Source: Bacteroidota bacterium (lineage in GTDB: Bacteria; Bacteroidota; Bacteroidia; B-17B0; Aurantibacillaceae). From it: 64,000 nucleotides of DNA. This document shows, in pieces, positions 3,567 to 52,059 of the stretch. Location of the stretch: assembly GCA_043772435.1 (NCBI GenBank), contig JAYVGH010000036.1, positions 19,375-83,374 on the forward strand, in the 5' to 3' direction. The notes under the pieces are model-generated. The model saw nothing but the letters and a program-made list of their open reading frames with translations, ran no database searches and was not told where the DNA came from. Made by a program: the position numbers and the translations under genes. The first letter of the stretch is position 1; the number at the start of each line of letters is the position of its first letter.

Positions 3567-3568
3567 TT

Positions 3569-24689: not shown

Positions 24690-26587
24690 TCTATTTTTTC
24701 TCCATTTAAAAATATACGGCACCACCATTCAAAGTTTAAAAAACTCCAAATCAATAAACGATGATTAATTTTATCATTTATATGCTCATTCACAATTTTT
24801 TTTACGTAGTCGGGATTTATAAATTCCGATGATACATTTTTTTTTCCGAGTAATAATTCTTTTACATAATCGGCATTTTCTCCACGGTACCAACTTTCAT
24901 CTGGTGCACTAAAGCCTTGTTTTTTTCTATTTAAAATAGAGTCAGGCATAAAGCTGCTCATGGCTTTTCGCAAAACATTTTTACCATCATCAAAATCACG
25001 ATAACTCGCTGTTTGCCTCGATTTTGAACTATCGTTCTCGTTAATTTTTTTTATTTCAGCTGTAAAGTTTCCAAGCTTGTGTTTAACGGGAATTTTTTGG
25101 GCAAAATTTACAAGGTCATTATCCATAAAAGGAAAACGTTCTTCTAAACCATTAGCCATACTTAATTTATCACCAACTAAAAATAAACTCGGCAAAAAGG
25201 TTTTTATTTCAAAATATAAAGAATTATTGATGTGTTGCTCGGGCGTTTGATATTGTAATTTATTATTAAAGGTAAAAACACGTTCAAAAATTTCGCGTGG
25301 CTCGTTAATATCTATTTTATTATAGATATTAGTATTAAATAATTGTTGTTTTTCGTTGTCGCTAACTAATCGCTGCCAAAAACCATAATATTGATTAAAA
25401 AATTCTTTTTGATCGAGCGCATTAAACACTCTATAATAACGCCAAGGATAACCTCCATACAACTCATCGCCGCCTGTACCTTGTAAACAAACTTTTACAA
25501 ATTTTGAAGCTAATCTGGAAATATAATAATTAGGGTAACTCATTCCAACTTTTAGATCCTCTAAATGATAAACAACTTTTGGTAAACTCCAGGCAAGATC
25601 GCCGGCATTTATTACTTGTTCGTAATGTTCGGTTTTAAAGGCATTGGCCATTAACTCGGCATCTCTTCTTTCGTCATAATTTGCTTCAACACCTGTAACG
25701 CCACTCATATCAAAACCACAGGTAAAAGTTGCCATGCGCGGTATCATACTTGAACCAACAGCAGTAATAGCACCACTATCCATACCACCCGATAAATAAG
25801 AACCTACTGGTACATCGGCAACCATTTGCCGTTTTACAGCTTGTTGAAATAAACGAAGGGTTTCATCTTTTGCATCGTTAAACGACATTGACTCGTCGGT
25901 ATTTGAAAAATCGTAATCCCACCAACTATTATGAACCAATTGTTTAAAATCATTTCCAATTTCGATAGTGTTAGCCGTTGGTATCATGGCCACGCCTTTA
26001 AATAAAGTACGAAATGAAAATAAATTTTGAAAGGTAAAATATTCGTTCAATGAACTTAGATCAACATCTACTTTAAAATTGGGATGTTTTAAAAATGCTT
26101 TTATTTCAGACGCAAACAAAAAGGTATCGCCGTTATGCCAATAGTATAAAGGTTTAATACCAAATTTATCGCGGCTTAAATATATTTTTCGATTACTATG
26201 ATTAAATGCAGCAATTGCAAACATGCCATTTAAACGCTGAAAAAATTTAGGGCCGTAAGCCTCTAATCCTTCAACAATAACTTCGGTATCTGTTGTAGAT
26301 GTAAATAAATGTCCCTTATTTAGAAGATCTTGCTTAAGCTCTTTAAAATTATAGATACATCCGTTAAATATGATCGTCCAGTTTTTTGATTTAGAGTGCA
26401 TTGGCTGAGAACCTTTTTCAGACAAATCGAGTATCGATAATCGTCGATGGCCAAGTGCAATGTTACCATCTATAAATATTCCTTTTCCATCAGGGCCTCT
26501 ATGTGCAATTGCATCTGTCATAGATGAAATTACAGATTCATCAACTCGTTGGTTATTAAAATTAATTATACCTGTTATACCGCACAT
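24686..26587 (-). CDS. asnB: AsnB-family amidotransferase, copy 3
   Basis: MCGI, HRRLSILD, LSGGMDS, GTGGDELYGGY, GLEERFPF. Confidence 0.92.
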   Translation of the reverse strand: MCGITGIINFNNQRVDESVISSMTDAIAHRGPDGKGIFIDGNIALGHRRLSILDLSEKGSQPMHSKSKNWTIIFNGCIYNFKELKQDLLNKGHLFTSTTDTEVIVEGLEAYGPKFFQRLNGMFAIAAFNHSNRKIYLSRDKFGIKPLYYWHNGDTFLFASEIKAFLKHPNFKVDVDLSSLNEYFTFQNLFSFRTLFKGVAMIPTANTIEIGNDFKQLVHNSWWDYDFSNTDESMSFNDAKDETLRLFQQAVKRQMVADVPVGSYLSGGMDSGAITAVGSSMIPRMATFTCGFDMSGVTGVEANYDERRDAELMANAFKTEHYEQVINAGDLAWSLPKVVYHLEDLKVGMSYPNYYISRLASKFVKVCLQGTGGDELYGGYPWRYYRVFNALDQKEFFNQYYGFWQRLVSDNEKQQLFNTNIYNKIDINEPREIFERVFTFNNKLQYQTPEQHINNSLYFEIKTFLPSLFLVGDKLSMANGLEERFPFMDNDLVNFAQKIPVKHKLGNFTAEIKKINENDSSKSRQTASYRDFDDGKNVLRKAMSSFMPDSILNRKKQGFSAPDESWYRGENADYVKELLLGKKNVSSEFINPDYVKKIVNEHINDKINHRLLIWSFLNFEWWCRIFLNGEKIE

Positions 26588-26588
26588 C

Positions 26589-27545
26589 CTATTTTGAAAC
26601 TATGGAAGTATGAGCTGCTTCTTCACTTCTAAAAAAATCAATTTTTAAATTTAATTCATTAGCCCATTCTTTATATTCTTCTGGCGTATATCGCTCAGCA
26701 TTACTGGGCGAGTACCAATCAAAATTGCAGGAATCATTTTCTTGTTTTGTCCATGTAGGATGGTAAAAACATTTAATAAAATTCCAGTAAATAAAACGCT
26801 GTATATCATAGTCGCCACCTTTTATTCCTAAAGCCGGAATATCTGGGCAGTTAAACTTTACATTTAATTCGGTTAAGCGTTTACCTAATTCCGTCAATTG
26901 ATTTGAAAATTCCCACATCTGTTCATGCGATAAATTATGAGTAGCTTTTCTAAAATGATCGTCAACTAATTCGCGTGGCAAGGCCTTTTTTGCATATACG
27001 TAACAAGCAAATTTACCTGTAGGTGAAAGTAAGGACGAAAGATGAGCAAATGTTTTTTTAGGGTTCTCGGTATGGTGAATAACCTGATCGCATAAAATAA
27101 AATCTAAAGTTTCTTTTTTAAATGGAAGGTTAGCAATATCGCCTCTTAAAAAAAACACATTAGGAATATGCTTATATCTTTTAGCTGCTACAAATGCTGC
27201 TTCCGAAAAATCAATACCAAATACTATTGCATGAGGAGCTAACTCTGCTAACCATGCGCTTTTATAACCAATACCACAACCTGCATCAATAATTACTTTT
27301 TTGTCTTTTAAAAATGTTTGCAGGCCTTCTATGGTTTTAAAGCCATATAATTCTAACACCCATTTTTTTTGAAACTCCTCTGATTCAGATGTCGCACTTT
27401 CTTTATCCAACTTTACCCATTTTTCTGAAAAAGAATCGTTTGTTTGTGATTGATTATGATATTCGGAAGCATCAGTGATAGTGGCAATGTTATCATTAAA
27501 AATTACCGGAAACGAAAATAAATGTTGTAATTGATCAGTTGTCAT
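26589..27545 (-). CDS. Class I SAM-dependent methyltransferase
   Basis: IIDAGCGIG motif I, GIDFS, GDIANLPF, DQVIHHT. Confidence 0.88.
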   Translation of the reverse strand: MTTDQLQHLFSFPVIFNDNIATITDASEYHNQSQTNDSFSEKWVKLDKESATSESEEFQKKWVLELYGFKTIEGLQTFLKDKKVIIDAGCGIGYKSAWLAELAPHAIVFGIDFSEAAFVAAKRYKHIPNVFFLRGDIANLPFKKETLDFILCDQVIHHTENPKKTFAHLSSLLSPTGKFACYVYAKKALPRELVDDHFRKATHNLSHEQMWEFSNQLTELGKRLTELNVKFNCPDIPALGIKGGDYDIQRFIYWNFIKCFYHPTWTKQENDSCNFDWYSPSNAERYTPEEYKEWANELNLKIDFFRSEEAAHTSIVSK

Positions 27546-28693
27546 TATTTAATTGATTTAATTTTTTCAACTACATAAAAAAAATCTTCTGCTACCATTT
27601 TGTTGTGCAACGGAATAGACATAGAATATTCGTTACATGCATATGCTCCGGGAAAATCGTTTGGTTTTAAGTTGTAATTTTTAGCGTAATAACCCAACAT
27701 GTGCACAGCATGTGTGCCGGGACGAGTGCTAATACCATTTTGCTGCAGGTACTCCATTATATCGTTACGTTTCATAGGCGAGCTAGTTTCATCAATAAAC
27801 AAAACATAACTTTGCCAACCATGCTTATAACCCTTTGCAACTTGGGGCGTGCGTAACCACGAAATGTCACTTAACTCCTTTGTATAATAATCGGCCCACT
27901 TTTGGCGCTCATCAATAAACTTATCCAACTTTTTAATTTGAACTACACCAACGGCACCTTGAAGATCTGTCATACGGTAATTAAATCCGGATAAATTAAA
28001 TTCAGGTAAAATATAAGGCTTAGGTCCTTTATGGCGCTGCTCTTCACTTATAGATGCGCCGTGATTGCGCAACATATCCATATAATTTGCAGCTTCCTCA
28101 TTATTAGTAGTTAACATTCCACCCTCGCCCGTTGTAACTGATTTGCGCGGGTGAAGAGAAAAACAACCAATATCGCCTAAACTTCCTGCGGGTTTACCAT
28201 TTAAAGCAGACCCGGCGGCACAAGCAGCATCCTCTACAATTTTTAATTTTGGAAATTCAGCTTTTATTGTTTCTATATCTGCGCATAAACCAAAAAGATG
28301 TACCGGAATAATGGCAGTAGTTTTAGAAGTGATTTTTTCTTTTATTTTTTTTAGATCAATATTAAATGTAATAGGATCAACATCCACAAAAACCGGAATG
28401 GCATTGCAATAAAGAACCGCGTTGGCTGTGCTAACCCAGGTAAAAGCAGGCACTATAACTTCGTCGCCCGGTTTTACACCAACGGCTAATAATGCCAAAT
28501 GCAAAGCTGTTGTACAATTACTTACTGCTAAAGCATGTGTTACATTATGCCTTTCGGCAAATAATTTTTGCAACTCAGCAACCTTTGGTCCTTGCGTTAA
28601 CCAGCCACTAAAAATAGGTTCCTTTAATGCTTCCCACTCTTCTTGCCCCATCATGGGCTGCGAAATTTGAATGATGCGTTTTGTTAATTCCAT
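27545..28693 (-). CDS. DegT/DnrJ/EryC1/StrS sugar aminotransferase
   Basis: SNCTTALHL, VEDAACA, FSLHPRKSVTTGEGG (PLP lysine), GFNYRMTD. Confidence 0.93.
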   Translation of the reverse strand: MELTKRIIQISQPMMGQEEWEALKEPIFSGWLTQGPKVAELQKLFAERHNVTHALAVSNCTTALHLALLAVGVKPGDEVIVPAFTWVSTANAVLYCNAIPVFVDVDPITFNIDLKKIKEKITSKTTAIIPVHLFGLCADIETIKAEFPKLKIVEDAACAAGSALNGKPAGSLGDIGCFSLHPRKSVTTGEGGMLTTNNEEAANYMDMLRNHGASISEEQRHKGPKPYILPEFNLSGFNYRMTDLQGAVGVVQIKKLDKFIDERQKWADYYTKELSDISWLRTPQVAKGYKHGWQSYVLFIDETSSPMKRNDIMEYLQQNGISTRPGTHAVHMLGYYAKNYNLKPNDFPGAYACNEYSMSIPLHNKMVAEDFFYVVEKIKSIK

Positions 28694-28695
28694 AA

Positions 28696-29646
28696 TTATT
28701 TTTTTAAAATATTTTTTAATGAATCTGCTAATTGTCTTGTAAAGATATCTGTTCCATAAGCATTCAGATGTGTTTCGTCATAAAAAAATAAATTATCATT
28801 GTAAGTTTCGTCATTCATAAAATTATAATATTTAATGTTATTTAATTGAACATAATTTAATAAAGACTTATGTAGATTATCAGGTTTATATGCTAAATAA
28901 CTTTGATGATGCAAGGGTGAGGAATAAATTACAAACTGAATATCATTTTTAATACAAAGATTTTGAATTTTATTTAAGTAATAAATATTCGATTGGTGTA
29001 AAGGTATTTCTTTTTTGATGTCATCGTACTTAGCAGTTGGAAAACCTTTTTTATGTTTTTGTTCTAGTTTACTATATCCTTTATACCTTAAGATACTTGA
29101 ATCAAATTTTGAAGGGATAAAATATTTTTTTAAACCATAATAATTATTAAACTCGGCATATTTAATAAAAGGAATATATTTCCATATCCAAAATTTTAAT
29201 AAGGATACATTATTTTTATAACACTCGTCTACATTTCTGTCTCCTATATAAGACATAAAAAAATATTCATAAAAGGGATGGGTATATCCAATTACTGGGT
29301 CAATTAAAAAGTTATCCTCTACTTGTTGAAGATACGTTTTAGTTTTATTGCCATTTTTTAAAAACAAATATAAGGTAAGATAGTTTTGGCTCATTGCGCT
29401 TCCGTCATACCCTATATTAAAACCATTGAGATGACATATTGAATCGAACAGTAGGGAGTTAAAATTATTATGCACTCGAGAAGACCCCCCTACTACATAG
29501 TCGTAATTTTCATTTGTGAAACTAATAATATAACTTGGTTTATCAATATAATTTTTTTTTGCCTTTTTTTCATAAAAAAAATTTACAACAAATAAGCCCG
29601 AATAACTAATAACTATAAATAAAAATAGTTTTGTGAAAATTTTCAT
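28696..29646 (-). CDS. Membrane-anchored SGNH-like protein (AlgJ/DltD-type MBOAT partner)
   Basis: N-terminal TM helix, GGSSR block, FYDETHLN (DxxH); follows the MBOAT gene. Confidence 0.55.
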   Translation of the reverse strand: MKIFTKLFLFIVISYSGLFVVNFFYEKKAKKNYIDKPSYIISFTNENYDYVVGGSSRVHNNFNSLLFDSICHLNGFNIGYDGSAMSQNYLTLYLFLKNGNKTKTYLQQVEDNFLIDPVIGYTHPFYEYFFMSYIGDRNVDECYKNNVSLLKFWIWKYIPFIKYAEFNNYYGLKKYFIPSKFDSSILRYKGYSKLEQKHKKGFPTAKYDDIKKEIPLHQSNIYYLNKIQNLCIKNDIQFVIYSSPLHHQSYLAYKPDNLHKSLLNYVQLNNIKYYNFMNDETYNDNLFFYDETHLNAYGTDIFTRQLADSLKNILKK

Positions 29647-31127
29647 TAAAATTGGAAATAAATAAATTCTTGTTTACTGTGAAAAGCTCCAAAAACAAAA
29701 AAAAGAAGAATAAGAAACTCATAAAATCCCCATTTTAAAACCCTAGGTTTATTATCCATATAATTAATAAATTTTGTTTTGTACTCTATTTTATTAATGT
29801 AAAATAAAATGCCTAATGAAAGTCCAAGGAGTAAAAAATCTATGAAATATTGATGAATATCCTTTTTAAATATTAAAGGTTCTAGCCACAAATATCCTTT
29901 TTGTGTTAGATGGTATAAATAAGATGGAATTCCAAATATGTAAGCTTTTGCTATAAACATTGCCTTTGAAATATTATCAGCCCTAAAGAATATCCAAGCA
30001 AAGCAAACTAAATAAAAAACCACGCCACGCTTAACTAATGTTGGTAGAAGTTTTTGACTTTTATGATAAAATTGTAACGGGAAATTTTTATTCGCAATTA
30101 TTTCAATTATTGTATATACACCGTGTATTATACCCCATACAATAAATGACCAACTAGCACCATGCCAAAACCCGCTTAATAAAAAAACTATAAATAGATT
30201 AAAAAACAATCGTAATTGCGGCACCCTATTGCCACCTAAAGGTATGTTAACATAATCTTTAAACCAAGTAGAAAGCGACATGTGCCATCTTGACCAAAAG
30301 TCACTAATACTAATGGCTCTATAAGGAGCTTTAAAATTTTGCATTAATTCTATACCCATAATTCTTGATGCACCTAATGCAATATCTGAATAACCCGAAA
30401 AATCACAATAAATTTGAAGGGCGAAAAAAATGGTAGCTATAAAAATAGTTATAGGTTCAAAATTTTCCGGGTTATCATATACCTGGTTTACATAGGGTGC
30501 AAGGTTATCCGCTATTACAACTTTTTTAAAAAACCCTAATAGCATTTGTTTTAATCCATTGCTAAATAAATATGGATTAAATTTATGTTTAGTATGAAAC
30601 TGTAGCAACAAATTTTGAGGTCTTTCAATTGGACCGGCTACCAATTGCGGATAGTACATTACATACAATGAATATATCCCAAAATGCTTTTCTGCTTTTT
30701 GATTTCCACGATATACTTCAATGGTGTAACTCATTGCTTGAAAAGTATGAAAAGAAAGCCCAATGGGTAAAATGATTTTTAGTAAATCTAAACTATAATT
30801 CCAGTTTAAAAAGTGAAATGCAGTATTAATATTATCTATAAAAAAATTAAAATATTTAAAAAATGCGAGGATACCGATATTGGAAATTAAACTTATAACA
30901 AGTATGTATTTTCGTCTCTTTCCTGCAAACTTCTCAATATAAATTCCAGCAAAATAGTCAATTATAATTGTGGCAAATAATATTAAAATATAAATTGGAA
31001 CAAAAAACATATAAAAAGTACAACTGGCTATTAATAACATTAGCCAGCGTAACTTATGGGGAAGCAAAAAGTATAACCCTGTTACTACAACAAAAAATAT
31101 AACAAACGAAAAGGAGTTAAATAACAT
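29646..31127 (-). CDS. MBOAT O-acyltransferase (AlgI/DltB family)
   Basis: LPIGLSFHTFQ, PQLVAGPIER, YCDFSGYSD, FWSRWHMSLSTW, SGFWHGA. Confidence 0.93.
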   Translation of the reverse strand: MLFNSFSFVIFFVVVTGLYFLLPHKLRWLMLLIASCTFYMFFVPIYILILFATIIIDYFAGIYIEKFAGKRRKYILVISLISNIGILAFFKYFNFFIDNINTAFHFLNWNYSLDLLKIILPIGLSFHTFQAMSYTIEVYRGNQKAEKHFGIYSLYVMYYPQLVAGPIERPQNLLLQFHTKHKFNPYLFSNGLKQMLLGFFKKVVIADNLAPYVNQVYDNPENFEPITIFIATIFFALQIYCDFSGYSDIALGASRIMGIELMQNFKAPYRAISISDFWSRWHMSLSTWFKDYVNIPLGGNRVPQLRLFFNLFIVFLLSGFWHGASWSFIVWGIIHGVYTIIEIIANKNFPLQFYHKSQKLLPTLVKRGVVFYLVCFAWIFFRADNISKAMFIAKAYIFGIPSYLYHLTQKGYLWLEPLIFKKDIHQYFIDFLLLGLSLGILFYINKIEYKTKFINYMDNKPRVLKWGFYEFLILLFFVFGAFHSKQEFIYFQF

Positions 31128-32116: not shown

Positions 32117-33409
32117 TTAAATTGTTGTAATTTCTACATTTTTTATTTTCATGTAGGCATTCCCATGCTTTTCATTCCATTTATAATTATGCGATCCATC
32201 CTCAGAATCAGCTGTCACTTCAAATTCAGCAATTTTTTCAATAAGATCAATAGCTTCTCCGGTATAATGCATAAACGCTGGAGAAATATGATATTTACCA
32301 GGCAAAAAACTATCGTGTAATTTAATAACGAGTTGGTGTTTGCCTTTTGGTAAAGATATAGTTTTAGTGCTACTTTCGGGATATTCAATATATGAGATTT
32401 TTTGCATATCATCGTTTAGTACTGAAAAAGAAAAAATAAGATCCTTCACGTCTTCAATCAATTCAAAATTCATTATAATATTGATGGTCTCTCTAAAAAA
32501 AAACTTTCTACTAATTTCATTTGCTTTATTAATTGTAGAAATGAAATCAATAAATCCTTTACCATTGTTATATAATCGTTTATAATTTCTAGGAATCTCT
32601 CCAGTTATTAAGGTTTGATCGTCTCTGGAAAAATACTGGTTTATAACTTCATTAGTTTTTCCATTAGCTTTTAATAATCCATTTTCTAAAAATACTGCTC
32701 TAGTGCAAAGTTGTTTTACAGCTCCCATATTATGGCTAACAAATAAAACAGTTCTACCTTGCCCACTTACATCTTTCATTTTGCCTATGCACTTATCCTG
32801 AAATTCCTGATCTCCTACTGCCAACACTTCATCAACTATCAAAATATCCGGTTCAAGATGTGCGGCAACTGCAAATGCAAGTCTAACGTACATACCAGAT
32901 GAATATCTTTTTACAGGGGTATCAATATAGCGTTCTACACCACTAAAAGCAATTATTTCATCAAACTTTTGCTGTATTTCTTTTTTTTTCATTCCAAGTA
33001 TAGCTCCGTTTAAAAAGATGTTATCTCGCCCTGAAAGTTCAGGGTGAAATCCAGTACCAACTTCTAATAAACTGGTAACTTTTCCTTTTATTTTATACTC
33101 ACCAATAGTGGGGCTTGTTGTGCGCGAAAGTATTTTAAGTAGGGTTGATTTTCCTGCCCCATTTCTACCAATTATTCCAAGAACTTCGCCCTTTTCAACC
33201 TTTATATTTATATCATTTAAAGCCCACACATAATTACTTGAAGCTTTTAAAGTACGGTCGTTTTCTTCTCCAATTTTTAAATAAGGGTCTTCTTTTCCTC
33301 TAATTTGGTACCACCATCTGTTTAAATCTTCGCCTACCGAACGAGAACTTAATTGACCTAGCCTGTATTGTTTACCTAAATTATTTATTTCTATTACTGT
33401 TTCGGGCAT
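32117..33409 (-). CDS. wzt: Glycan ABC exporter ATPase with C-terminal Wzt_C-like domain
   Basis: GRNGAGKST, YSSGMYVRLAF, ILIVDE, plus a beta-rich C-terminal extension. Confidence 0.92.
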   Translation of the reverse strand: MPETVIEINNLGKQYRLGQLSSRSVGEDLNRWWYQIRGKEDPYLKIGEENDRTLKASSNYVWALNDINIKVEKGEVLGIIGRNGAGKSTLLKILSRTTSPTIGEYKIKGKVTSLLEVGTGFHPELSGRDNIFLNGAILGMKKKEIQQKFDEIIAFSGVERYIDTPVKRYSSGMYVRLAFAVAAHLEPDILIVDEVLAVGDQEFQDKCIGKMKDVSGQGRTVLFVSHNMGAVKQLCTRAVFLENGLLKANGKTNEVINQYFSRDDQTLITGEIPRNYKRLYNNGKGFIDFISTINKANEISRKFFFRETINIIMNFELIEDVKDLIFSFSVLNDDMQKISYIEYPESSTKTISLPKGKHQLVIKLHDSFLPGKYHISPAFMHYTGEAIDLIEKIAEFEVTADSEDGSHNYKWNEKHGNAYMKIKNVEITTI

Positions 33410-33410
33410 A

Positions 33411-34265
33411 TTATACTGTATCCATAAATGTTTTTTCTGTTTTATTAAAAACTATAACAGAAATAAAAAAAGTTATTAGTATAACACCAAAGCCTATAAA
33501 TAAATAATGCCAAGAGAATAAACCATGACCTGTTAAAGCAAATTTTATAGCCTCTAAACAAATTAAAATTGGATTATACATCAATATATGTTTTACTTTA
33601 TCAGGATATATTGTAATTGGAAAAACTACACAACTAATGTACATTATAAATTGCACCCCAAAACCTAATACAAAGGTTAAATCTCTATATTTAGTAGTAA
33701 AAGAAGAAAAAATAATACCTATACTTAAACCCAATATTCCTAAAAAAATAACGATTAAGGGAATAATCAACATGTATATGGGCTGAGGAGTTACATTTTC
33801 TGAGGTTGTAACATAATAAAAATAAACACATAGAAATAGAATAATTTGTAAAATTAATTTAAAGAGGTTTGAAATTATAATTGATATAGGCATGACCAAG
33901 CGTGGAAAATAAACTTTACCAAAAATTGATGCGTTTGCAATAAACGTATTTGAAGTTTTGTTTAAACAATCTGCAAAATAGTTCCAAAAAGTTTGACCCA
34001 TAAGATAAAACAGTATTGGTGGTATGCCATCGGTACTAATTTTAGCGCTTTTACTAAACGTAAATGTATATATAGCTGTGGTAAACAATGGTTGTAATAA
34101 CATCCATAAAGGTCCTAAAACAGTTTGTTTATATAGTGATGTAATATCTCTTTTTACCATTATCATCACTAAATCTCTATATTCCCATACTTCTCTAATA
34201 TTAAAAGTAAAAATAGAAGTCTTAGGTTTTACAATTATATCCCATTTTTCGTCAGTATCTCCCAT
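33411..34265 (-). CDS. wzm: Glycan ABC exporter permease
   Basis: YKQTVLGPLW, KVYFPRL, KYRDL, YNP; six hydrophobic segments. Confidence 0.92.
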   Translation of the reverse strand: MGDTDEKWDIIVKPKTSIFTFNIREVWEYRDLVMIMVKRDITSLYKQTVLGPLWMLLQPLFTTAIYTFTFSKSAKISTDGIPPILFYLMGQTFWNYFADCLNKTSNTFIANASIFGKVYFPRLVMPISIIISNLFKLILQIILFLCVYFYYVTTSENVTPQPIYMLIIPLIVIFLGILGLSIGIIFSSFTTKYRDLTFVLGFGVQFIMYISCVVFPITIYPDKVKHILMYNPILICLEAIKFALTGHGLFSWHYLFIGFGVILITFFISVIVFNKTEKTFMDTV

Positions 34266-34275
34266 TAGTTTTTAT

Positions 34276-34773
34276 TTATTTTATTTCTATAATTTCTGCT
34301 GGTACCTTAACTTTTAGAGAAAAGCCAATACTTATAATACAAATAAAAAAAGTATCCTCATTATTGCCTCTTTCAACAATACCCATTAATCCCTTAAAGG
34401 GTCCGTGTTTAATAATAACCTCGTCACCAATACTTACTATTTTATTAATGTCAGTTTCTGTATAATATCCTTTTTTCTCAATTAATTTTAATATCCTTAT
34501 TTCATTTTCTGAAATAATTGCATCTATTCCATTAAACCTCACATACTGCACTACACCCTTAATTCTAAATACTAAATCTCGTTGTAATTCAGTTATATTA
34601 ACAAATACATATCCATTTATTAGTGGAGAAATAACAGTCATTTTTCTATCGCTCCATTGTTTTTTTTCCGTTTTTAAGGGTATATAACTTTCCAATCCTA
34701 ACTGTTGAAGTGCTAAATTTATTTTTTTTTCGGAGCGCGAGGCAACGTATAGAGCTTTCCAATATGTTTGCAT
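34276..34773 (-). CDS. upxY: UpxY-family (NusG paralog) transcription antiterminator
   Basis: WKALYVASRSEKK, KKQWSDRK, PLINGYVFV, KOW GDEVIIKHGPFKG. Likely start is the ATG at 34773 (A-rich -3..-1), not the GTG at 34791. Confidence 0.9.
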   Translation of the reverse strand: MQTYWKALYVASRSEKKINLALQQLGLESYIPLKTEKKQWSDRKMTVISPLINGYVFVNITELQRDLVFRIKGVVQYVRFNGIDAIISENEIRILKLIEKKGYYTETDINKIVSIGDEVIIKHGPFKGLMGIVERGNNEDTFFICIISIGFSLKVKVPAEIIEIK

Positions 34774-34800
34774 TTTACACAGCTTCGCCACCTCAGTCCC
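34774..34800 (-). promoter_or_regulatory. Candidate ops-like pause/UpxY loading element
   Basis: Minus strand GGGACTGAGGTGGCGAAGCTGTGTAAA: the only GC-rich patch in an AT-rich gap. Contains the GCGAAGC mini-hairpin (34782..34788) just upstream of the upxY ATG. Confidence 0.5.
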
Positions 34801-34887: not shown

Positions 34888-35418
34888 TTATTTGTTCCAA
34901 ATGAGCAATGGATGCACATCAGGTTCTTTAATTTTTTCTAAATCAAATTCACTTTCGTTATAAACAATGAATTTTATTTTTTTGTTTATTTTTTTTTCCG
35001 CCTTAACTATTAATTCAGCTAAATATACCTTATTAATATCTCCAACCAAAACCAAATCAATTATATCTGAATCTAAACCCTTTGCCAATTTACCAATTAA
35101 ATATACTTTTTCTAATTTACCAATACGCTGTAAAATATAATCAATTACATAATCAATGCCCACCATTTTTTTTACAATACTATTAATATCAAAAAATAAG
35201 GGGTGAGAATTATTTGCTTTAAATAATTTTTTATTGCCTTGTAAAAAAGAAGTTAAAAACCCTGCTTTTTCAAAACGATTTAATTCAATACGAATAGAAT
35301 TAGTAGATTCGCCAAACTCATCTTCTAAACTTCGTAAATATGAGGTAGAATTAGAATTTAAAAAAAACTTTAAAAGAATTTTTACACGGGTTTTAGAAGA
35401 TATTAAAGTTTCAATCAT
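34888..35418 (-). CDS. wHTH (ArsR-like) regulator with C-terminal nucleotidyltransferase-like domain
   Basis: LISSKTRVKILLKFF...YLRSLEDEFGESTNSIRIELNRFEKAG HTH; C-terminal VYLIGKLAKGLDSDIIDLVLVG. Confidence 0.75.
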   Translation of the reverse strand: MIETLISSKTRVKILLKFFLNSNSTSYLRSLEDEFGESTNSIRIELNRFEKAGFLTSFLQGNKKLFKANNSHPLFFDINSIVKKMVGIDYVIDYILQRIGKLEKVYLIGKLAKGLDSDIIDLVLVGDINKVYLAELIVKAEKKINKKIKFIVYNESEFDLEKIKEPDVHPLLIWNK

Positions 35419-35461: not shown

Positions 35462-37828
35462 TTATTTTTTATAACCATACCCTTTGCCATACCCATAGCC
35501 ATATCCATATCCATAACTATAGCCATAACCCTGATAATAATAACGTTTACCCATACGGTGTGTTCCGTTTAAAACTAACAACATATTTTTAATGTTATTA
35601 TCTTCAATTACAGACTCAATAAATGTAATTACCTTTTTAGTGCTAGTTTTTGTGTTTAATACAAAAATTGCCGAATCAACATATTGAATTAAATAAATTG
35701 AATCAGATAAAATACCGGCTGGAGGGGTATCAATAATAACAAAATCAAAATTTTGTTTAGCCAAATTTATAATTTCTTTTAATCTTTCCGATAAAACAAA
35801 TTCAGATGGGTTAGGAGGTATAGGCCCGCAAAATAAACAAAATAAATTTGGAATTTGAGTGGGTGTTATTATTTCTTCAAAAGTATTTTGACCACTTATG
35901 CACGTAGTTAAACCAATAGTTTGCACAGGTAAGCCAAAACGTTTATAAATACGTGGTTTGTGTAAATCTAATTCTATTAACAACGTTTTTTTACCGCTAC
36001 GCGCCATTATGGTAGCCAAATTTATACTCGTAAACGTTTTTCCTTCTCCCGGCGAGAAGGAAGTGATCAAATAGGTTTTGGCTTGCTTATCTACATTTGT
36101 GTATTGCAGGTTTGTTCTAAAATTTCTAAAAGATTCTGATATTAAAGAGTTTGGTTTTTGCTCAACAATTATACCATCGTTGCCTCCATCTTTTACATAC
36201 GGAAAAACGCCTACCAAAGGCAAATCCGTTAATTCTTTTAAATGATCGACAGACGTTATTTTTGAAAAGAAAAATGCTCTAAGAATAATTATAACAATTG
36301 AAAGTAATAAACCAAAGGACATAATTTTTTTTTGGATAGCAGCCTTATCCGGCTCTACTACTCCCAAATTACGCGGCGATTCAATCACTTTTATATCCGG
36401 TATTATACTTGCTTTTGCAATTTTTGTATTAGCTCTTTTTTGTAATAAAAAATTATACAAATCTTCATTAACATTGGCTTTACGCTGTATGTTTAAAACA
36501 TCGCGTTGTTTACCGGGAATTAATTTAGCTTCAGATATATATTTATCTATTTCCTTCTCAATATTTTCCATATTTAATACTGTTGCTTTGCGAGTATTAT
36601 TTATGTAAACCAATAAATCCTGTTTTATCTTTTTTATGTTGGATTTTAAATCACCTATTATAGGATTATTTTCTTTTGCAACATTGTATAATTTATTTAA
36701 TTCAATTTGTTTTGAATATAGCTCTATAATTGCTTGCCCCATAAAACCGCCTTTTTCTGTAATAAAAACTCCAGGCGGTAAAAACTGTGGGTCTTTATCT
36801 TCAATAATATATTTTTCTAAATCGGACAAAGAGGCTAACTGTAGTTGTTGAGAAGATTTTTCGTTATCATATCTCGAAATTTTACCTAAAAAATCGCTTT
36901 GCTCCCAGTTTAAATCAATAATGGATTTTTTTTCCTTATAATTTTGCATAGTATCTTCTATGCTTTTTAAGGAATAGCTAATTTCGTCCAATTGCTTGTC
37001 AATGTAAACAATGGTTCGTTCATTTAACTCAAATTTTGTTTTTAAACGATTACTGGAGTAAACTCTGTTAAGTGTGTCTAATATTAATACTGCTCTTTCT
37101 GCAATAACATCTTTTAATCCAAGTTCTAAAATATTAGTATATTCCGGATTATTGATTGTCATTTTAGATTGTATATTACCTATTAAATAACCTTCGCTAT
37201 GAAACGAGAATTGATAAAAAATACTTTTTAAGGCATCAACTGTTTCTATTGAAAAGTTTCCTTCTCGGCTAATATTTATATTAAAGTCTAAGTCAATTAA
37301 ATCTGTATTAAACTTGCCTTTTTTTACTTGCGAAACGCCATTTTGGTCAAACGATATTTCATAATTGTTATAATCAATTATTTTAAAATCAAATACTTGT
37401 TCATATAAATTAGAATTAATTAAGCTTACATTAATTTTAAACGGCATACCACTAAATTGTTCCGTTTTGCGAACTTTGCCTACAATAAAATAGGATACCT
37501 GCAGCTTATCTTTTAATTTATTTACTACTTGACTAGCTAAATCATAAGATTGTAAAACCCTAACTTCGTTTAAGTTATCAACGTACGAGCCATAGCTGTA
37601 AAACCCTTCCTCACTTAATACACTTGCTTGATTATAAGTATCATTTACTTTTAAAAGTAATTGGGTAGATGCTTGATAAACATTTGTTAATCTGTACACA
37701 TAAAAAGTACCAATTGTGTACAAAATTGGTAAAATTATTAACGGCACCCACCAATTTGATTTAACTATTCGCCATAAAAGGTTTAAATCTTTTTGGGATA
37801 TTATAGACTGTTTTTTGGTTTCCGCCAC
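35462..37828 (-). CDS. wzc: Wzc/GumC polysaccharide co-polymerase, BY tyrosine kinase
   Basis: Two TM helices flanking a periplasmic coiled coil, ESFRNFRTNL, Walker A SPGEGKT, LIELDLHKP, IIDTPP, Tyr-rich tail. Confidence 0.9.
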   Translation of the reverse strand: MAETKKQSIISQKDLNLLWRIVKSNWWVPLIILPILYTIGTFYVYRLTNVYQASTQLLLKVNDTYNQASVLSEEGFYSYGSYVDNLNEVRVLQSYDLASQVVNKLKDKLQVSYFIVGKVRKTEQFSGMPFKINVSLINSNLYEQVFDFKIIDYNNYEISFDQNGVSQVKKGKFNTDLIDLDFNINISREGNFSIETVDALKSIFYQFSFHSEGYLIGNIQSKMTINNPEYTNILELGLKDVIAERAVLILDTLNRVYSSNRLKTKFELNERTIVYIDKQLDEISYSLKSIEDTMQNYKEKKSIIDLNWEQSDFLGKISRYDNEKSSQQLQLASLSDLEKYIIEDKDPQFLPPGVFITEKGGFMGQAIIELYSKQIELNKLYNVAKENNPIIGDLKSNIKKIKQDLLVYINNTRKATVLNMENIEKEIDKYISEAKLIPGKQRDVLNIQRKANVNEDLYNFLLQKRANTKIAKASIIPDIKVIESPRNLGVVEPDKAAIQKKIMSFGLLLSIVIIILRAFFFSKITSVDHLKELTDLPLVGVFPYVKDGGNDGIIVEQKPNSLISESFRNFRTNLQYTNVDKQAKTYLITSFSPGEGKTFTSINLATIMARSGKKTLLIELDLHKPRIYKRFGLPVQTIGLTTCISGQNTFEEIITPTQIPNLFCLFCGPIPPNPSEFVLSERLKEIINLAKQNFDFVIIDTPPAGILSDSIYLIQYVDSAIFVLNTKTSTKKVITFIESVIEDNNIKNMLLVLNGTHRMGKRYYYQGYGYSYGYGYGYGYGKGYGYKK
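35465..35542 (-). repeat. Gly-Tyr coding hexamer repeat (Wzc phospho-acceptor tail)
   Basis: Encodes YYYQGYGYSYGYGYGYGYGKGYGYKK; tandem ccata-type units on the + strand. Confidence 0.8.
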
Positions 37829-37845
37829 AAAAAAATATTAGTCAA

Positions 37846-37853
37846 CAAATATA
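37846..37853 (-). promoter_or_regulatory. Candidate -7 box for wzc
   Basis: TATATTTG matches TAnnTTTG, 17 nt upstream of the GTG start; no clear -33 box. Confidence 0.45.
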
Positions 37854-37922
37854 GATGTTTTTATTAAATATTTTTTTATGTAATTTAATATTCTTAAATT
37901 TACAAATCACAAATTAAAAAAA

Positions 37923-38129
37923 ATGAAATCAATTTACATAATCTTATTTCTATTTGTTTCAAATATAATTTTTTCAGCACCACCACCACCACCTGCAGGT
38001 TCGCCAGGCTGTTGGCCACCACCTTGTGTACCTATTGATAATGGTATAATTTTCTTAATAATAGCCGGTATACTTTTTGGGTTTAAAAAAATTTACGATT
38101 TTCGTAAAAAACAACAGGTTATTTCTTAA
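37923..38129 (+). CDS. PID-CTERM protein-sorting-signal microprotein (exosortase substrate)
   Basis: Signal peptide, APPPPPAGSPGCWPPPC, VPIDNG motif, TM helix, basic KKIYDFRKK tail; immediately upstream of an exosortase. Confidence 0.8.
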   Translation: MKSIYIILFLFVSNIIFSAPPPPPAGSPGCWPPPCVPIDNGIIFLIIAGILFGFKKIYDFRKKQQVIS

Positions 38130-38143
38130 TCTATATTTATAAA

Positions 38144-38692
38144 ATGATTTCGCTTAAACAAAATGCCTTTACAAGGTTTATTGTTTTAGCCTCTTTTTTA
38201 TATTTAGTGTTATTTTTTGTTTACCAATTTGTTATTAAAAAATACACCTATTACGATCAAAAATTTATAGGTCATATAATCTCAATGGCCGATTCTGTTT
38301 TAAAATTTTTAGGCTATACAACCTTTTACGTTCTTCAAGATAGAGATGTGCAGGTTGTTGGCATAGATGGTTCCGGTGGCGTGTGGGTAGGTTCAAACTG
38401 CAATGCTATAAGCTTATTTGCTTTATTTGCAGTATTTGTATTGGCATATCCCGGTCATCAAAAAAGTAAAATTTGGTATATTCCATTAGGCATTGTATTA
38501 ATTCATATTTTAAATTTAGCCAGAGTAATTTCATTAGCTGTAATCGCTTTTTACTCGCCACTTAGCCTAAATTTTAATCACACGTATACATTTACATTCA
38601 TTGTTTACGCTTTTATATTTTTATTGTGGATGGTATGGGTAAACAAATTTTCAAACAAAAATAAAAAAGTCATAATTAAACATGAAACTTAA
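38144..38692 (+). CDS. Exosortase/archaeosortase-family protein (XrtX/XrtF-like)
   Basis: Polytopic membrane protein with candidate catalytic triad Cys (GSNCNAI), Arg (LNLARV), His (FNHTYTF). Confidence 0.85.
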   Translation: MISLKQNAFTRFIVLASFLYLVLFFVYQFVIKKYTYYDQKFIGHIISMADSVLKFLGYTTFYVLQDRDVQVVGIDGSGGVWVGSNCNAISLFALFAVFVLAYPGHQKSKIWYIPLGIVLIHILNLARVISLAVIAFYSPLSLNFNHTYTFTFIVYAFIFLLWMVWVNKFSNKNKKVIIKHET

Positions 38693-39152
38693 AGCCATTT
38701 TATTTTTCGTTATTTTATTTGGTATATTGGGCTATTGCCGCGAGTTTTTTTTTGTAAATCTTAATAATATTATGTTTGAAAAGTATTACAATCACACTAC
38801 TCTTCCTATACCAAGTATAATGAGTCTTTTTAACTCTTATAGCTATAAAACATTATACTATTCAAAATATTTTTATACTTTAATTTCGATAATCATTTTT
38901 TACCTACTCAGTTACGTTGCTATTAAAAAAATTGGTAGCGAAAAAAAATTATTAAAATATCTTACCATTTCTTATTTGATTTTGTTTATTTTAGCCGCAT
39001 CAATTATGGCTTTTGGATTAATAATAAACCAACGTTTGCAAGATGATGAATACTCAATTAGTCGTTGGTTAATGGGCATAACTCAATCGCCCATAATCTG
39101 TTTTATATTATTGGCTTCACATAATCTATATAAAAAATCATTTCAATCTTAA
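38682..39152 (+). CDS. Exosortase-associated membrane protein
   Basis: Four hydrophobic segments, [19 protein letters not shown]; overlaps the exosortase stop. Confidence 0.65.
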
Positions 39153-39162
39153 AAAAATAATT

Positions 39163-40440
39163 ATGCTAAAAAGAGACACAACAATATTTAAATTAATTAA
39201 AGAAGAAGAGCATCGCCAAACACAAGGCATTGAACTTATTGCCAGCGAAAACTACGTTAGCAAACAAGTTATGCAGGCTATGGGTAGTGTGTTAACCAAT
39301 AAATATGCCGAAGGCTTACCCTTTAAACGCTACTACGGTGGTTGCGAAGTTGTAGATAAAGTTGAGCAATTGGCCATTGACCGTGCAAAAGAATTATTTG
39401 GTGCGGTTTGGGTAAATGTACAGCCACATTCAGGAGCACAAGCCAATGCTGCTGTTATGCTTGCTTGCTTAAAACCCGGCGATACTATTTTAGGGTTTGA
39501 CCTTAGCCATGGTGGACATTTAACCCACGGTTCACCTGTAAATTTTTCCGGAAAACTTTACCGTGCTACTTTTTACGGTGTTACAAAAGAAACAGGGTTA
39601 ATTGATTATGACAGTATTGAAAAAACTGCAAAAGCAGAAAAACCAAAAATGATTATTTGTGGTGCCAGTGCTTATTCTCGAGATTGGGATTACGAACGTT
39701 TTCGTAAAATTGCCGACTCGGTTGGCGCTATTTTATTAGCCGACATTTCGCACCCAAGCGGCTTAATTGCTAAAGGTATTTTAAACGATCCTATTCCGCA
39801 TTGCCACATTGTAACTACAACTACGCACAAAACATTGCGTGGCCCCCGCGGCGGTATGATTATGATGGGTAAAGATTTTGAAAACCCGTTTGGCGAAAAA
39901 ACACTAAAAGGTGAAACTAAATTAATGAGCAATTTGTTAGATATGGGTGTATTCCCCGGCACACAGGGTGGCCCGTTAGAACACGTTATTGCCTCAAAAG
40001 CCATTGCTTACGGCGAAGCGTTAACCGATGATTATATGCACTATTGTGTTCAATTAGTAAAAAATGCAAACACAATGGCAAAAGGCTTTATGGATTTGGG
40101 CTACAACATTGTTAGCAAAGGCACCAGCAACCACATGTTTTTAATTGATTTACGAACTAAAAACTTAAACGGCAAAGAAGCCTTAGCAGCTTTAGAACAA
40201 GTAAATATTACGGTAAATAAAAACATGGTACCTTTTGATGATAAATCCGCCTTTGTTACTTCGGGCATTCGCATTGGTTCGCCGGCAATTACTACACGCG
40301 GCTTAAAAGAAAAAGACTGTTTAAAAATTGTGGAATTAATTGACAATGTTTTAAAACATAAAGACAGCCCAAAAGAATTAGCGAAAATTAAAAAGAAGGT
40401 AAATACTATGATGGAAAAATATCCTTTATTTAAGGATTAA
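39163..40440 (+). CDS. glyA: Serine hydroxymethyltransferase
   Basis: [39 protein letters not shown]. Confidence 0.98.
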
Positions 40441-40475
40441 TCGTTAAAAATACGATCATTTAATTTCTTAAGAAC

Positions 40476-40496
40476 TTTTAGGTTTCAACCCTAAAA
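40476..40496 (+). terminator. Weak hairpin downstream of glyA
   Basis: TTTTAGG-N7-CCTAAAA, 35 nt after the glyA stop; AT-rich with no strong U-tract. Confidence 0.3.
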
Positions 40497-40671
40497 TGTA
40501 ACATAGTTTTAAACGTGAGAAAATTGTTATTTACTCTTTTGATGTAAATTTTTTAAAATCTCGTAAAATGTGCGATAAAACAAAACCCTTTTTAGCCTTT
40601 ACTATTTAAATGCAAGTAGGTGCTAATTAACACCCATGCAAACATTTTTAAACCTTTATTACCAATACACT

Positions 40672-50046: not shown

Positions 50047-52059
50047 TTACTCCAACAACAACACAGTACCTTTTAATTGTTGGTATTCGCCACGAGAATT
50101 TTTGTAATTTATTAAATACACATACGTATCAGGTGGGGAACTTTTACCGTCCCAGCCTTTTGTATCATCATTGGTTTCAAATAATTTTGTCCCCCACCGG
50201 TTATAAATACTAACGTTGTAATCTGTTTTATCTATAAAATGTGTAATGGGTAACCATATTTTATTTTTACCTGTAGGCGCAAATGCAGTAGGAATATATA
50301 ATCTGCCTTCTATATAAATTTCTTCTAAATTGGATTTACTTGTTTCTAAAAAACCATACACATCACCAAGGCCTTCAATGGCTTCAATTACATATTCTAT
50401 TTTACTGCCATTGGGTGCTTCTTCGTTAACATCATCAGTAAACGTAGTATCTGTTGGACCTTTACTGGCAATGGGTGTAGCTTTTTGAACATCGTTTATA
50501 ACACGGTAAATATTATAGCCGCTTACGTTACCATTAAAGCCTAAATAATTTGTCCATTGTAAATGCTTGGTAAAAATTTCTTCTTTATCTTCTTGTACAG
50601 TTAATAATATTGTTTTAACTAACTGGCTTTTCGTTCGCTCGTTTCCACAACCATCATTTACAACCGCTCTGTAAAAATAAAAAGTATGCTTTGTATCTGC
50701 TTGCTCATCCAACACCTCATAAAAAGGGGTGCCGTTAAACCCAACACTGGCAACTTTTGTAAACGTAATGGCATCTAATGAACGGTAAATTGTAATGCCT
50801 GTACTTGTTTTAGTTGTATCTAAAAATAATTTTAAACGTACCGATTTTTTATCGACTACGGTTGCTGTTTGAATGTAAAGAAAGCCGGGCGCCAACAACT
50901 GCTGACTAAAAAAACAACTGCGATTACTGCTTGATGTTATGTTTTTTGTTGTATTTATGGCTCTAATAAAATAACAGCAGTTTGCACCGGGTAATGTATT
51001 TGTGTGGGTAAACGCTGTTAAAGTTGTTGATCCTACTTGCAAAAAAGCACTGCCATTAACCGAATAATAAATACGATATTCCAATAACCCATTTGGAATA
51101 TTGCGATAAGGGGTCCAACTTAAATTTGTTTTGTAGGCGCAACTGTCGTATTTACTTGTTAAAAACATAGTACGGGGCAAGCTGTCATAAGTAGAAATAT
51201 TATTACAACTGTCTTTAGCCGAAACATACATTCCTACCCAACTGCTATTAGCTACATTTATTGTATATGTAAATGATGTGTTATTTACTCCATTTAGTGT
51301 AGGTGTTAGGGCAACATCTATACCACTTGTTTTTTTTAATATTACATAACCTACCACATCTAAATCGCGAGGTACATACCAGGCTATAACTGTATTACCG
51401 TTTGGTAAAACACTTATCGAATCGACAAAAGGTTGATTAGGGGCTTTTTGATCTTTGTACAAACCACCCTGTATGTTGGAAGTTGAAACACAACCGCTAT
51501 TATCTTGCAATGTAGCCTGGTAATTTATACTTGCAGAACAAACACTAATTGTATCAAAATAATTTAAAGCTGAAGTTATTGCTAAATTATTCCAAACAGC
51601 CGCCGGAAACTCTTTAACCAATACAAAAGACGCAGCCGTGCTCGCTAATTTTGGTTGATGAATAGCATTGTAAATTAATTTTACTGCCGGGGAGCCTGTA
51701 TTTTGTATACAATTTAAAAAAATAGTGCGCAGTGTATCTGAATTAAAAAAACTATTGTTGGTGTTAAACTTAGTTTTCATGTAATAGTAACGGCTTTGTA
51801 AATTTGCGTTAGCACCCGCATGCGTATATTGTGTAGTGCTTAAAGCCCCAATTGTACCAACTAAATTAAAGGGGCCGCTTAAAGATGTTGATGACCAAAC
51901 TTCAAACGATGCAAAGCTAAAAGTTGGGTCAGATGGCGAAACCCAAGTTAATTTTACATCGCCATTAGCAAATACTTGTAAACAACGCAAACTAGGCGGA
52001 TTTACCTGCGCAGCCAATTGCATAGATAAAAAAATAAGTATGACTAAAATTACTTTCAA
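50047..52059 (-). CDS. Secreted fn3-repeat protein with gliding-motility/CHU_C (T9SS type B) C-terminal domain
   Basis: Signal peptide, repeated L.W...Y.IY modules, C-terminal YIPTAFAP...IYNRWG...GWDG...YVYLI. Confidence 0.8.
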   Translation of the reverse strand: MKVILVILIFLSMQLAAQVNPPSLRCLQVFANGDVKLTWVSPSDPTFSFASFEVWSSTSLSGPFNLVGTIGALSTTQYTHAGANANLQSRYYYMKTKFNTNNSFFNSDTLRTIFLNCIQNTGSPAVKLIYNAIHQPKLASTAASFVLVKEFPAAVWNNLAITSALNYFDTISVCSASINYQATLQDNSGCVSTSNIQGGLYKDQKAPNQPFVDSISVLPNGNTVIAWYVPRDLDVVGYVILKKTSGIDVALTPTLNGVNNTSFTYTINVANSSWVGMYVSAKDSCNNISTYDSLPRTMFLTSKYDSCAYKTNLSWTPYRNIPNGLLEYRIYYSVNGSAFLQVGSTTLTAFTHTNTLPGANCCYFIRAINTTKNITSSSNRSCFFSQQLLAPGFLYIQTATVVDKKSVRLKLFLDTTKTSTGITIYRSLDAITFTKVASVGFNGTPFYEVLDEQADTKHTFYFYRAVVNDGCGNERTKSQLVKTILLTVQEDKEEIFTKHLQWTNYLGFNGNVSGYNIYRVINDVQKATPIASKGPTDTTFTDDVNEEAPNGSKIEYVIEAIEGLGDVYGFLETSKSNLEEIYIEGRLYIPTAFAPTGKNKIWLPITHFIDKTDYNVSIYNRWGTKLFETNDDTKGWDGKSSPPDTYVYLINYKNSRGEYQQLKGTVLLLE

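Follow-up and report, generated by a model that had tools for sequence, protein, structure and literature searches.

We analysed a 64-kb stretch of DNA from a Bacteroidota bacterium (GenBank assembly GCA_043772435.1, contig JAYVGH010000036.1, positions 19,375 to 83,374 of the forward strand; hereafter the window) and re-checked against it the claims of an initial annotation. By its model matches, the window carries a member of the PID-CTERM/exosortase X (XrtX) family, which is known only as database models. Its three genes encode a 68-amino-acid (aa) precursor, the exosortase and an overlapping membrane protein, and stand back-to-back with wzc. On balance, we favor the reading that this locus is a dedicated sorting system and that the adjacent 68-aa precursor is the substrate of XrtX. 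By analogy with related enzymes, XrtX would most likely cleave at the PID motif and hand a short Pro-rich spacer peptide on to a cell-envelope acceptor. The conserved synteny of the locus, the tiny cargo found throughout the family, the recurrent adjacency to Wzc and the presence of type IX secretion system (T9SS) genes as neighbors in other lineages are new findings.

The precursor and its exosortase

The minigene (37923..38129, plus strand) encodes a precursor laid out as MKSIYIILFLFVSNIIFS, then APPPPPAGSPGCWPPPCVPID, then NGIIFLIIAGILFGF, then KKIYDFRKKQQVIS. The peptide scores 30.7 bits on the NCBIfam model NF046080 (PID_CTERM; cutoff 26), which covers aa 36-59, and its homologues carry precomputed matches to Pfam PF28310 (PID_CTERM). 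Hydropathy, by which all signal peptides and transmembrane (TM) segments were called, picks out an N-terminal core at aa 3-17 within a predicted Sec signal peptide (aa 1-18; 37923..37976, plus strand) that ends with a small residue at -1. It also picks out a predicted TM helix (aa 40-54), followed by a Lys/Arg-rich, presumably cytoplasmic tail (aa 55-68; helix and tail together 38040..38126, plus strand); with the PID motif (aa 37-39; 38031-38039, plus strand), these make up a tripartite sorting signal of PID, hydrophobic segment and KK...RKK tail. Signal peptidase I would likely cut at IFS|AP; a cut one residue later should be blocked because Pro would then occupy +1. The predicted periplasmic segment APPPPPAGSPGCWPPPCVPID (aa 19-39; 37977..38039, plus strand) ends in the PID motif and contains a candidate disulfide loop, CWPPPC (38010-38027, plus strand); residues 19-37 include 10 Pro. 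A lipoprotein reading was rejected: the signal peptide ends IIFS|A without Cys, so there is no lipobox L-x-x-C, and LLC or LIC ahead of the Pro-rich run occurs in a few distant homologues only. The 68-aa precursor holds no D-(S/T)-x sequon, and the idea that it is O-glycosylated at such a site was dropped on these grounds.

Comparative evidence came from a scan for XrtX loci that took one genome per species and yielded 174 loci, throughout from metagenome-assembled genomes of uncultured Bacteroidota; counts out of 80 below refer to the best 80 of these 174, from 80 species-level genomes. The minigene lies upstream of XrtX in all 80. After trimming of over-extended open reading frame (ORF) calls, the peptide homologues measure 65-80 aa. 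Their signal peptides vary in sequence while keeping their character, and the mature segment is better conserved than either the signal peptide or the tail: APPPPPAGSPGCWPPPCVPID is nearly invariant in 34 homologues and across the 80 loci, where C-W-P-P-P-C-[VI]-P-[IV]-D-[GN]-G is essentially fixed. The 36 nucleotides (nt) encoding the CWPPPCxPxDGG core occur in 78 distinct DNA versions that use all synonymous codons and yet specify just 9 peptide versions. Codon differences in this core number 369 synonymous against 128 non-synonymous, the latter at the V/I and G/N positions. The CWPPPC-x-P-x-D core is thus under strong purifying selection, and because synonymous changes dominate in it, the 68-aa ORF is real and not a chance ORF. 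As for an RNA alternative, no Rfam family overlaps 37000-40600. Each locus has exactly one PID-CTERM ORF; neither the 64-kb window nor the related loci, which add up to about 1.3 Mb, contained a second, and the larger PID-CTERM proteins that the initial annotation had named as possible true substrates were likewise absent from that DNA.

The gene following the minigene (38144..38692, plus strand) encodes XrtX, a polytopic membrane protein of 182 aa that reaches 182.1 bits on NF046081 (cutoff 170). XrtF ranks second among its families, with 92.4 bits on the model TIGR04128 (cutoff 90). Its catalytic candidates, Cys86 (38399-38401), Arg127 (38522-38524) and His146 (38579-38581; all plus strand), are invariant in an alignment of 27 XrtX homologues. 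The AlphaFold model of XrtX (mean pLDDT 73.5) consists of predicted helices and a three-strand sheet; no relatives were found in the PDB by sequence for XrtX or its partner, nor by fold for the XrtX model.

Overlapping the exosortase gene is that of a 156-aa candidate XrtX-associated membrane protein (38682..39152, plus strand), syntenic in 79 of the 80 loci. Three of its hydrophobic segments exceed the hydropathy threshold (aa 6-24, 63-81 and 96-114), and it has the conserved motifs REFFF and DDEYxxSRWLxGxxQSP. The NCBIfam model named for such partners, NF046082, is matched by 16 of 18 partner orthologues with a best E-value of 8.7e-12; the bit scores seen, 41.2 in locus L087 and 19.8 in L095, are below its 75-bit cutoff. 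The PID-CTERM/XrtX identity that the initial annotation gave is therefore confirmed by NF046080 and NF046081, and its statements about the 68-aa ORF, the exosortase, the overlapping membrane protein and the 94-nt distance from wzc all agree with the DNA. JGI labels the XrtX homologues 'exosortase family protein XrtF' and the peptide and partner 'hypothetical protein'. This is a systematic mis- or under-annotation, in which XrtX is often mislabelled XrtF and minigenes of 50-120 aa usually go by 'hypothetical protein'.

Small predicted products across the PID-CTERM family

A profile limited to the sorting domain, which runs from VPID to the C-terminus, was compared with 1.84 billion representatives of 50%-identity clusters at E<=0.001. 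It matched 1208 representatives, and lengths and linkers were inspected for the best 150 of these. All except one measured 40-121 aa (149 of the best 150; median 75 aa). The sole long match, P0274 at 351 aa, proved to be a false positive with internal AAGAAYGAKKLHDKKKK repeats, no PID motif and a match that was not C-terminal. The 149 true matches share a single plan of signal peptide, short linker, [VI]P[IL]DGG, helix and KK..RKK tail. In these proteins the end of the signal-peptide core is separated from the D of PID by a median of 22 residues, and the linker is 23% Pro, 12% Gly and 12% Asp. A 41-aa tail profile, run as a protein-word search, returned 1269 matches, of which the best 120 were all 68-91 aa long. 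A short, Pro-rich, linker-like product is thus the design of the whole PID-CTERM family. The initial annotation was right that little cargo remains after processing, the predicted product being about 20 residues; it had called this unusual, which holds in comparison with other exosortase systems and their typically large substrates, but minimal cargo turns out to be the rule of the PID-CTERM family. The CWPPPC loop, by comparison, is a subfamily feature: a CW-type motif is present in only 19 of the 149 true matches and at least two Cys in 37 of 141, and with so narrow a distribution the loop is no part of a general XrtX mechanism.

From this architecture, and by analogy with the enzyme family, we infer the export route, the cleavage site, the preference for transfer over hydrolysis, the nature of the acceptor and the physiological role. 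The precursor would be exported by Sec, and residues 1-18 would be taken off by signal peptidase I. The C-terminal helix and Lys-rich tail would hold the remainder in the inner membrane with the 21-residue APPPPPAGSPGCWPPPCVPID facing the periplasm. Cys86 of XrtX, aided by Arg127 and His146, would then attack at or next to PID and leave the helix behind, and the roughly 20-residue peptide's new C-terminus would be passed to an envelope acceptor, with the XrtX-associated membrane protein assisting or supplying that acceptor. The expected product is a short, stiff, polyproline-type spacer or adaptor and no cargo protein; in the CWPPPC subfamily, a Cys30-Cys35 disulfide may close a loop. Its function would be tied to the neighboring Wzc and Wzm-Wzt polysaccharide export machinery.

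Gene order, Wzc and competing explanations

The polysaccharide co-polymerase and BY-tyrosine kinase Wzc (788 aa; 35462..37828, minus strand) was identified by Pfam Wzz, GNVR and AAA_31 and by 158 bits on NCBIfam TIGR01007 (cutoff 108), and it has a Tyr-rich C-terminal tail. The start of its gene is separated from the minigene by a divergent intergenic region of 94 nt (37829..37922). On the other side, 10 nt 3' of the partner gene, lies the serine hydroxymethyltransferase gene glyA (39163..40440, plus strand; NF000586, 604 bits). The minigene and xrtX are 14 nt apart and xrtX overlaps the partner gene by 11 nt; no terminator-like site was found between 37923 and 39163. These tight junctions, with no terminator-like site between them, suggest a single transcript for peptide, xrtX, partner and glyA, with glyA apparently the last gene of the unit. 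The order wzc<->peptide-xrtX-partner-glyA is kept in 75-80 of the 80 related loci: glyA follows the partner gene in 78, and wzc is adjacent and divergent upstream in 75; of the five loci without a wzc match, most have a contig end no more than about 1 kb from the XrtX gene. Because the housekeeping gene glyA is fixed to the same degree, synteny within this clade is weak evidence for a functional link. The glyA tie itself could be ancient synteny, or it could be functional, for instance through Ser/Gly or one-carbon supply for the formyltransferase of the glycan locus. The gene also stands right after the minigene in L095 (7434-8657) and 5 kb downstream in L084 (15178-16467). Four loci (L035, L054, L056 and L063) carry inserts of 0.5-1 kb between xrtX and the partner gene, which contain no conserved ORF. 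In L049 (11200-12500), repeated short elements lie between the partner gene and glyA, with recurring fragments such as LRLTQRPHQ...QARFDKLSGRISIQHLPRK.

Distant family members outside the window's clade were sampled in 12 single look-ups. L087 encodes, on one strand, a T9SS cargo protein, PID-CTERM, XrtX (218 bits), the partner, wza, wzc, GT4, an epimerase, wzm, wzt and DegT; its XrtX is 40% and its Wzc 30% identical to those of the window. In L095, wzc is divergent from the XrtX-partner pair and XrtX is 39% identical to that of the window; the CWPPPC-type minigene is found 4 kb downstream, where it follows the gene of a 1066-aa PKD/SprB-repeat protein and immediately precedes glyA. The L095 partner gene (2815-3720) appears frameshifted, with the QSP motif region continuing in another frame; at a contig coverage of 1.68x, this is probably an assembly error and not a pseudogene. 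Among the four deep lineages with visible context, a small sample, three have Wzc beside XrtX. The link to the glycan locus that the initial annotation had put forward holds in the window's clade and recurs in the diverged loci L087 and L095. Because the Wzc-XrtX adjacency recurs at about 39% XrtX identity and in differently ordered loci, it exceeds what inertia would lead one to expect and speaks for a genuine connection with polysaccharide export.

Several points weigh against the sorting-system reading. The conserved order may partly be lineage inertia, glyA being as tightly syntenic as wzc. XrtX of L084 lies 7 kb from the minigene and 2.8 kb from the locus edge with no wzc within the visible 20 kb, and L083 has no XrtX within -6.7/+10 kb of its minigene. 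The window's own partner protein is too diverged to give a reported NF046082 match in the NCBIfam scan. Beyond the best 150 of the 1208 matches there may be larger PID-CTERM proteins with more divergent tails. Whether exosortases carry out one-step transpeptidation or hydrolysis is still unsettled (10.1101/2023.06.07.544157). Finally, we found no paper on PID-CTERM, only unrelated matches to 'XrtX', and no experiment on any family member.

The first two of these points bear on the possibility that wzc is back-to-back with the unit by inherited gene order without function, XrtX and its peptide acting outside the glycan locus. We consider this doubtful, though it is the likeliest of three rival explanations. 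It would account for the fixity of glyA in 78 of 80 loci and its recurrence in L095 and, 5 kb away, in L084; for the pattern in 80 loci that all come from one group of uncultured Bacteroidota; and for L084, where wzc is missing from the visible 20 kb. It fits poorly with an adjacency that persists where XrtX identity is down to about 39% and Wzc identity to 28-30%, and that is seen in two further gene orders, one co-directional with wza (L087) and one divergent with the minigene moved by 4 kb (L095). In addition, the enzyme family was founded on the observed linkage between exosortases and exopolysaccharide (EPS) loci (10.1101/2023.06.07.544157), and the window Wzc weakly matches the NCBIfam models for the XrtA-associated tyrosine kinase and chain-length determinant.

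The minigene product might also occupy XrtX as a pseudo-substrate, a regulator or a structural subunit, with the real substrates encoded elsewhere, which we think unlikely. This explanation has no account of why the strongest conservation in the clade falls in the mature segment, with CWPPPC invariant. Nor does it square with the family survey, where the best 149 true domain matches all stay at or below 121 aa, or with the lack of a second PID-CTERM ORF in about 1.3 Mb around XrtX genes. What speaks for it is that most of the protein is sorting signal, that the wider family keeps PIDGG, TM helix and KK tail while the linker varies, that the minigenes of L083 and L084 are not beside XrtX, and that our searches for further PID-CTERM ORFs covered the window and the loci around XrtX genes.

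Least convincing of the three is the proposal that XrtX cuts the peptide and hydrolysis releases a soluble, unattached product, either a signal or a ribosomally synthesized and post-translationally modified peptide (RiPP), as the initial annotation had allowed. The small, Pro-rich, possibly disulfide-cyclized product and the unsettled balance of hydrolysis and transfer in exosortases would suit it, but it appears quite improbable because the leader is an ordinary Sec signal peptide, the adjacent genes include no RiPP maturase (rSAM, YcaO or LanM-type), other modifying enzyme, peptide exporter or dedicated exporter, a product in the periplasm of a diderm would also require a route across the outer membrane, the linkers of the wider family are low-complexity P/G/D filler unlike bioactive peptides, and the mature sequence, unlike that of signaling peptides, is near-invariant across distant species while XrtX is only 53-75% identical, which also makes a released species-specific signal unlikely. 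A RiPP cluster was rejected as a candidate on the same footing: the neighbors are wzc, XrtX, the small membrane protein, glyA and OmpA-like and glycan genes, with no maturase family among them and a Sec leader on the peptide.

Surface biology and related systems

The genes behind wzc, judged by their domain content, form an ATP-binding cassette (ABC) transporter-type surface polysaccharide locus. It starts (32117..34791, minus strand) with a NusG/UpxY-like antiterminator (34276-34791; Pfam NusG), wzm (33411-34265; Pfam ABC2_membrane) and wzt with its Wzt_C domain (32117-33409; Pfam ABC_tran and Wzt_C), and contains deeper in genes for an epimerase, an MBOAT acyltransferase, a DegT aminotransferase, a methyltransferase, an AsnB-like amidotransferase and a formyltransferase. 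The AsnB-like amidotransferase, formyltransferase, DegT aminotransferase and MBOAT acyltransferase are encoded at 23907-31127 (minus strand) and suggest an amino sugar with heavy N-acylation or amidation. The AsnB-like gene is reminiscent of WbpS from the T9SS linking-sugar pathway (PMC7468200). Between wzc and the NusG/UpxY-like gene, a 176-aa ORF (34888-35418, minus strand) that belongs to no Pfam or NCBIfam family is kept in 58 of the 80 related loci at 56-92% identity and in a fixed place in the glycan locus.

The initial annotation had proposed -7 boxes on both strands of the wzc-minigene spacer, and the comparison with 78 related intergenic regions upheld one of the two. The Bacteroidota-type box facing wzc (TATATTTG; 37846..37853, minus strand) is a perfect TAnnTTTG with an equivalent in 74 of the 78. 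The plus-strand 'box' at 37895-37902, TAAATTTA, is an imperfect match, and a perfect plus-strand box no more than 60 nt from the peptide ATG exists in just 15 of 78 loci. Over the whole window, TAnnTTTG shows no enrichment (109 found, 127 expected), and a sigma-70 scan, which is uninformative for Bacteroidota, returned 17 sites where 14 were expected.

Outside the window's clade, the gene just 5' of the minigene usually encodes a large protein with a T9SS type-A C-terminal domain (Por_Secre_tail), 28-110 nt away on the same strand. The upstream gene is visible in nine independent loci and is such a cargo gene in seven of them: L083 (3069-6930), L084/L085 (L084:3678-10207), L086 (1-1482), L087/L088 (L087:5361-10216), L091 (20-1275), L093 (1-772) and, by homology, L082 (3-623). 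The cargo proteins are distantly homologous over their last ~400 aa to each other and to the PKD/SprB-repeat protein of L095. No T9SS cargo gene adjoins the XrtX unit of the window; the closest CHU_C-type protein, which has 670 aa and a CHU_C type-B T9SS sorting domain, is encoded 11 kb away (50047-52059, minus strand), and given this domain the source organism probably has a T9SS. One speculative extension, a long shot in our own estimate, is that PID-CTERM minipeptides are two-ended adaptors, with the C-terminus fixed by XrtX to an envelope lipid or Wzc-exported glycan and the N-terminal amine, or the whole peptide, attaching T9SS surface proteins. Such an adaptor would resemble the seryl/glycyl linking sugar of the anionic lipopolysaccharide (A-LPS) in Porphyromonas and Tannerella, and would explain the short Pro/Gly/Asp spacer, the placement of the minigene behind a T9SS cargo gene in most other lineages and the company of XrtX and Wzc.

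Ever since its description, the exosortase family has posed the question of what its members attach their substrates to, and a 2023 preprint still gives the target as unknown (10.1101/2023.06.07.544157). A product of about 20 residues suits this question well, since the whole product and its C-terminal adduct could be read in a single top-down mass spectrum. The locus therefore offers a tractable natural mini-substrate from a large family tied to Wzc-type polysaccharide export and, in other lineages, to T9SS cargo, and it provides a lead from XrtX to the surface biology of Wzc and T9SS.

In general, exosortases are linked to EPS and are putative transpeptidases that share a Cys/Arg/His triad with sortases (10.1101/2023.06.07.544157). 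The proposed transfer step is modeled on PGF-CTERM/ArtA, a homologous enzyme family: ArtA of Haloferax volcanii is the sole member with experimental coupling of C-terminal helix removal to lipid attachment (10.1101/2023.06.07.544157). ArtA is archaeal, acts on a large S-layer glycoprotein and uses a prenyl-derived lipid, and the window XrtX reaches just 16 bits on TIGR04125. In Bacteroidota, the sortase-like precedent is PorU-dependent attachment of T9SS cargo by the C-terminal domain to A-LPS: in Porphyromonas and Tannerella, the cargo's new C-terminus is amide-linked to an amino-acyl linking sugar in a surface glycan (PMC7468200), although enzyme and signal are unrelated to those described here and the PorU step takes place at the outer membrane.

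The PEP-CTERM/exosortase A (EpsH) system likewise combines a Sec signal, a motif-TM-basic tail arrangement, Cys/Arg/His and EPS loci with Wzc-like proteins. It differs from the window in its motif (PEP, not PID) and in having many, often large, substrates per genome as against one tiny substrate per locus. XrtA is also a much larger enzyme than the window XrtX, which matches no XrtA model in NCBIfam and scores 18.3 bits, below the cutoff, on Pfam Exosortase_EpsH (positions 104-251 of the 254-position profile).

The nearest sister enzyme is XrtF of Flavobacteriia (TIGR04128/TIGR04127; Fjoh_1448/Fjoh_1449), which is similarly small, has a small membrane partner encoded directly downstream and is found in Bacteroidota. 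The window enzyme scores far higher on the XrtX model and, unlike XrtF, has a candidate substrate encoded next to it; neither the window partner nor any of 18 orthologues matches TIGR04127 at E<=10. Mutants of Flavobacterium johnsoniae in xrtF and its partner gene lose biofilm formation and surface colonization, and the XrtF substrates are unknown (PMC10936215). Because this sister system serves biofilm and surface colonization, a surface or matrix role for XrtX is plausible. Closest of all is the PID-CTERM/XrtX family itself (NF046080, NF046081, NF046082; PF28310), whose peptide and enzyme genes, tripartite signal and Cys/Arg/His are present at the window locus beside a candidate for the third gene. 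Nothing essential differs from that family, and the window's clade is marked within it by the CWPPPC subfamily and by the fixed order wzc<->pep-xrtX-partner-glyA.

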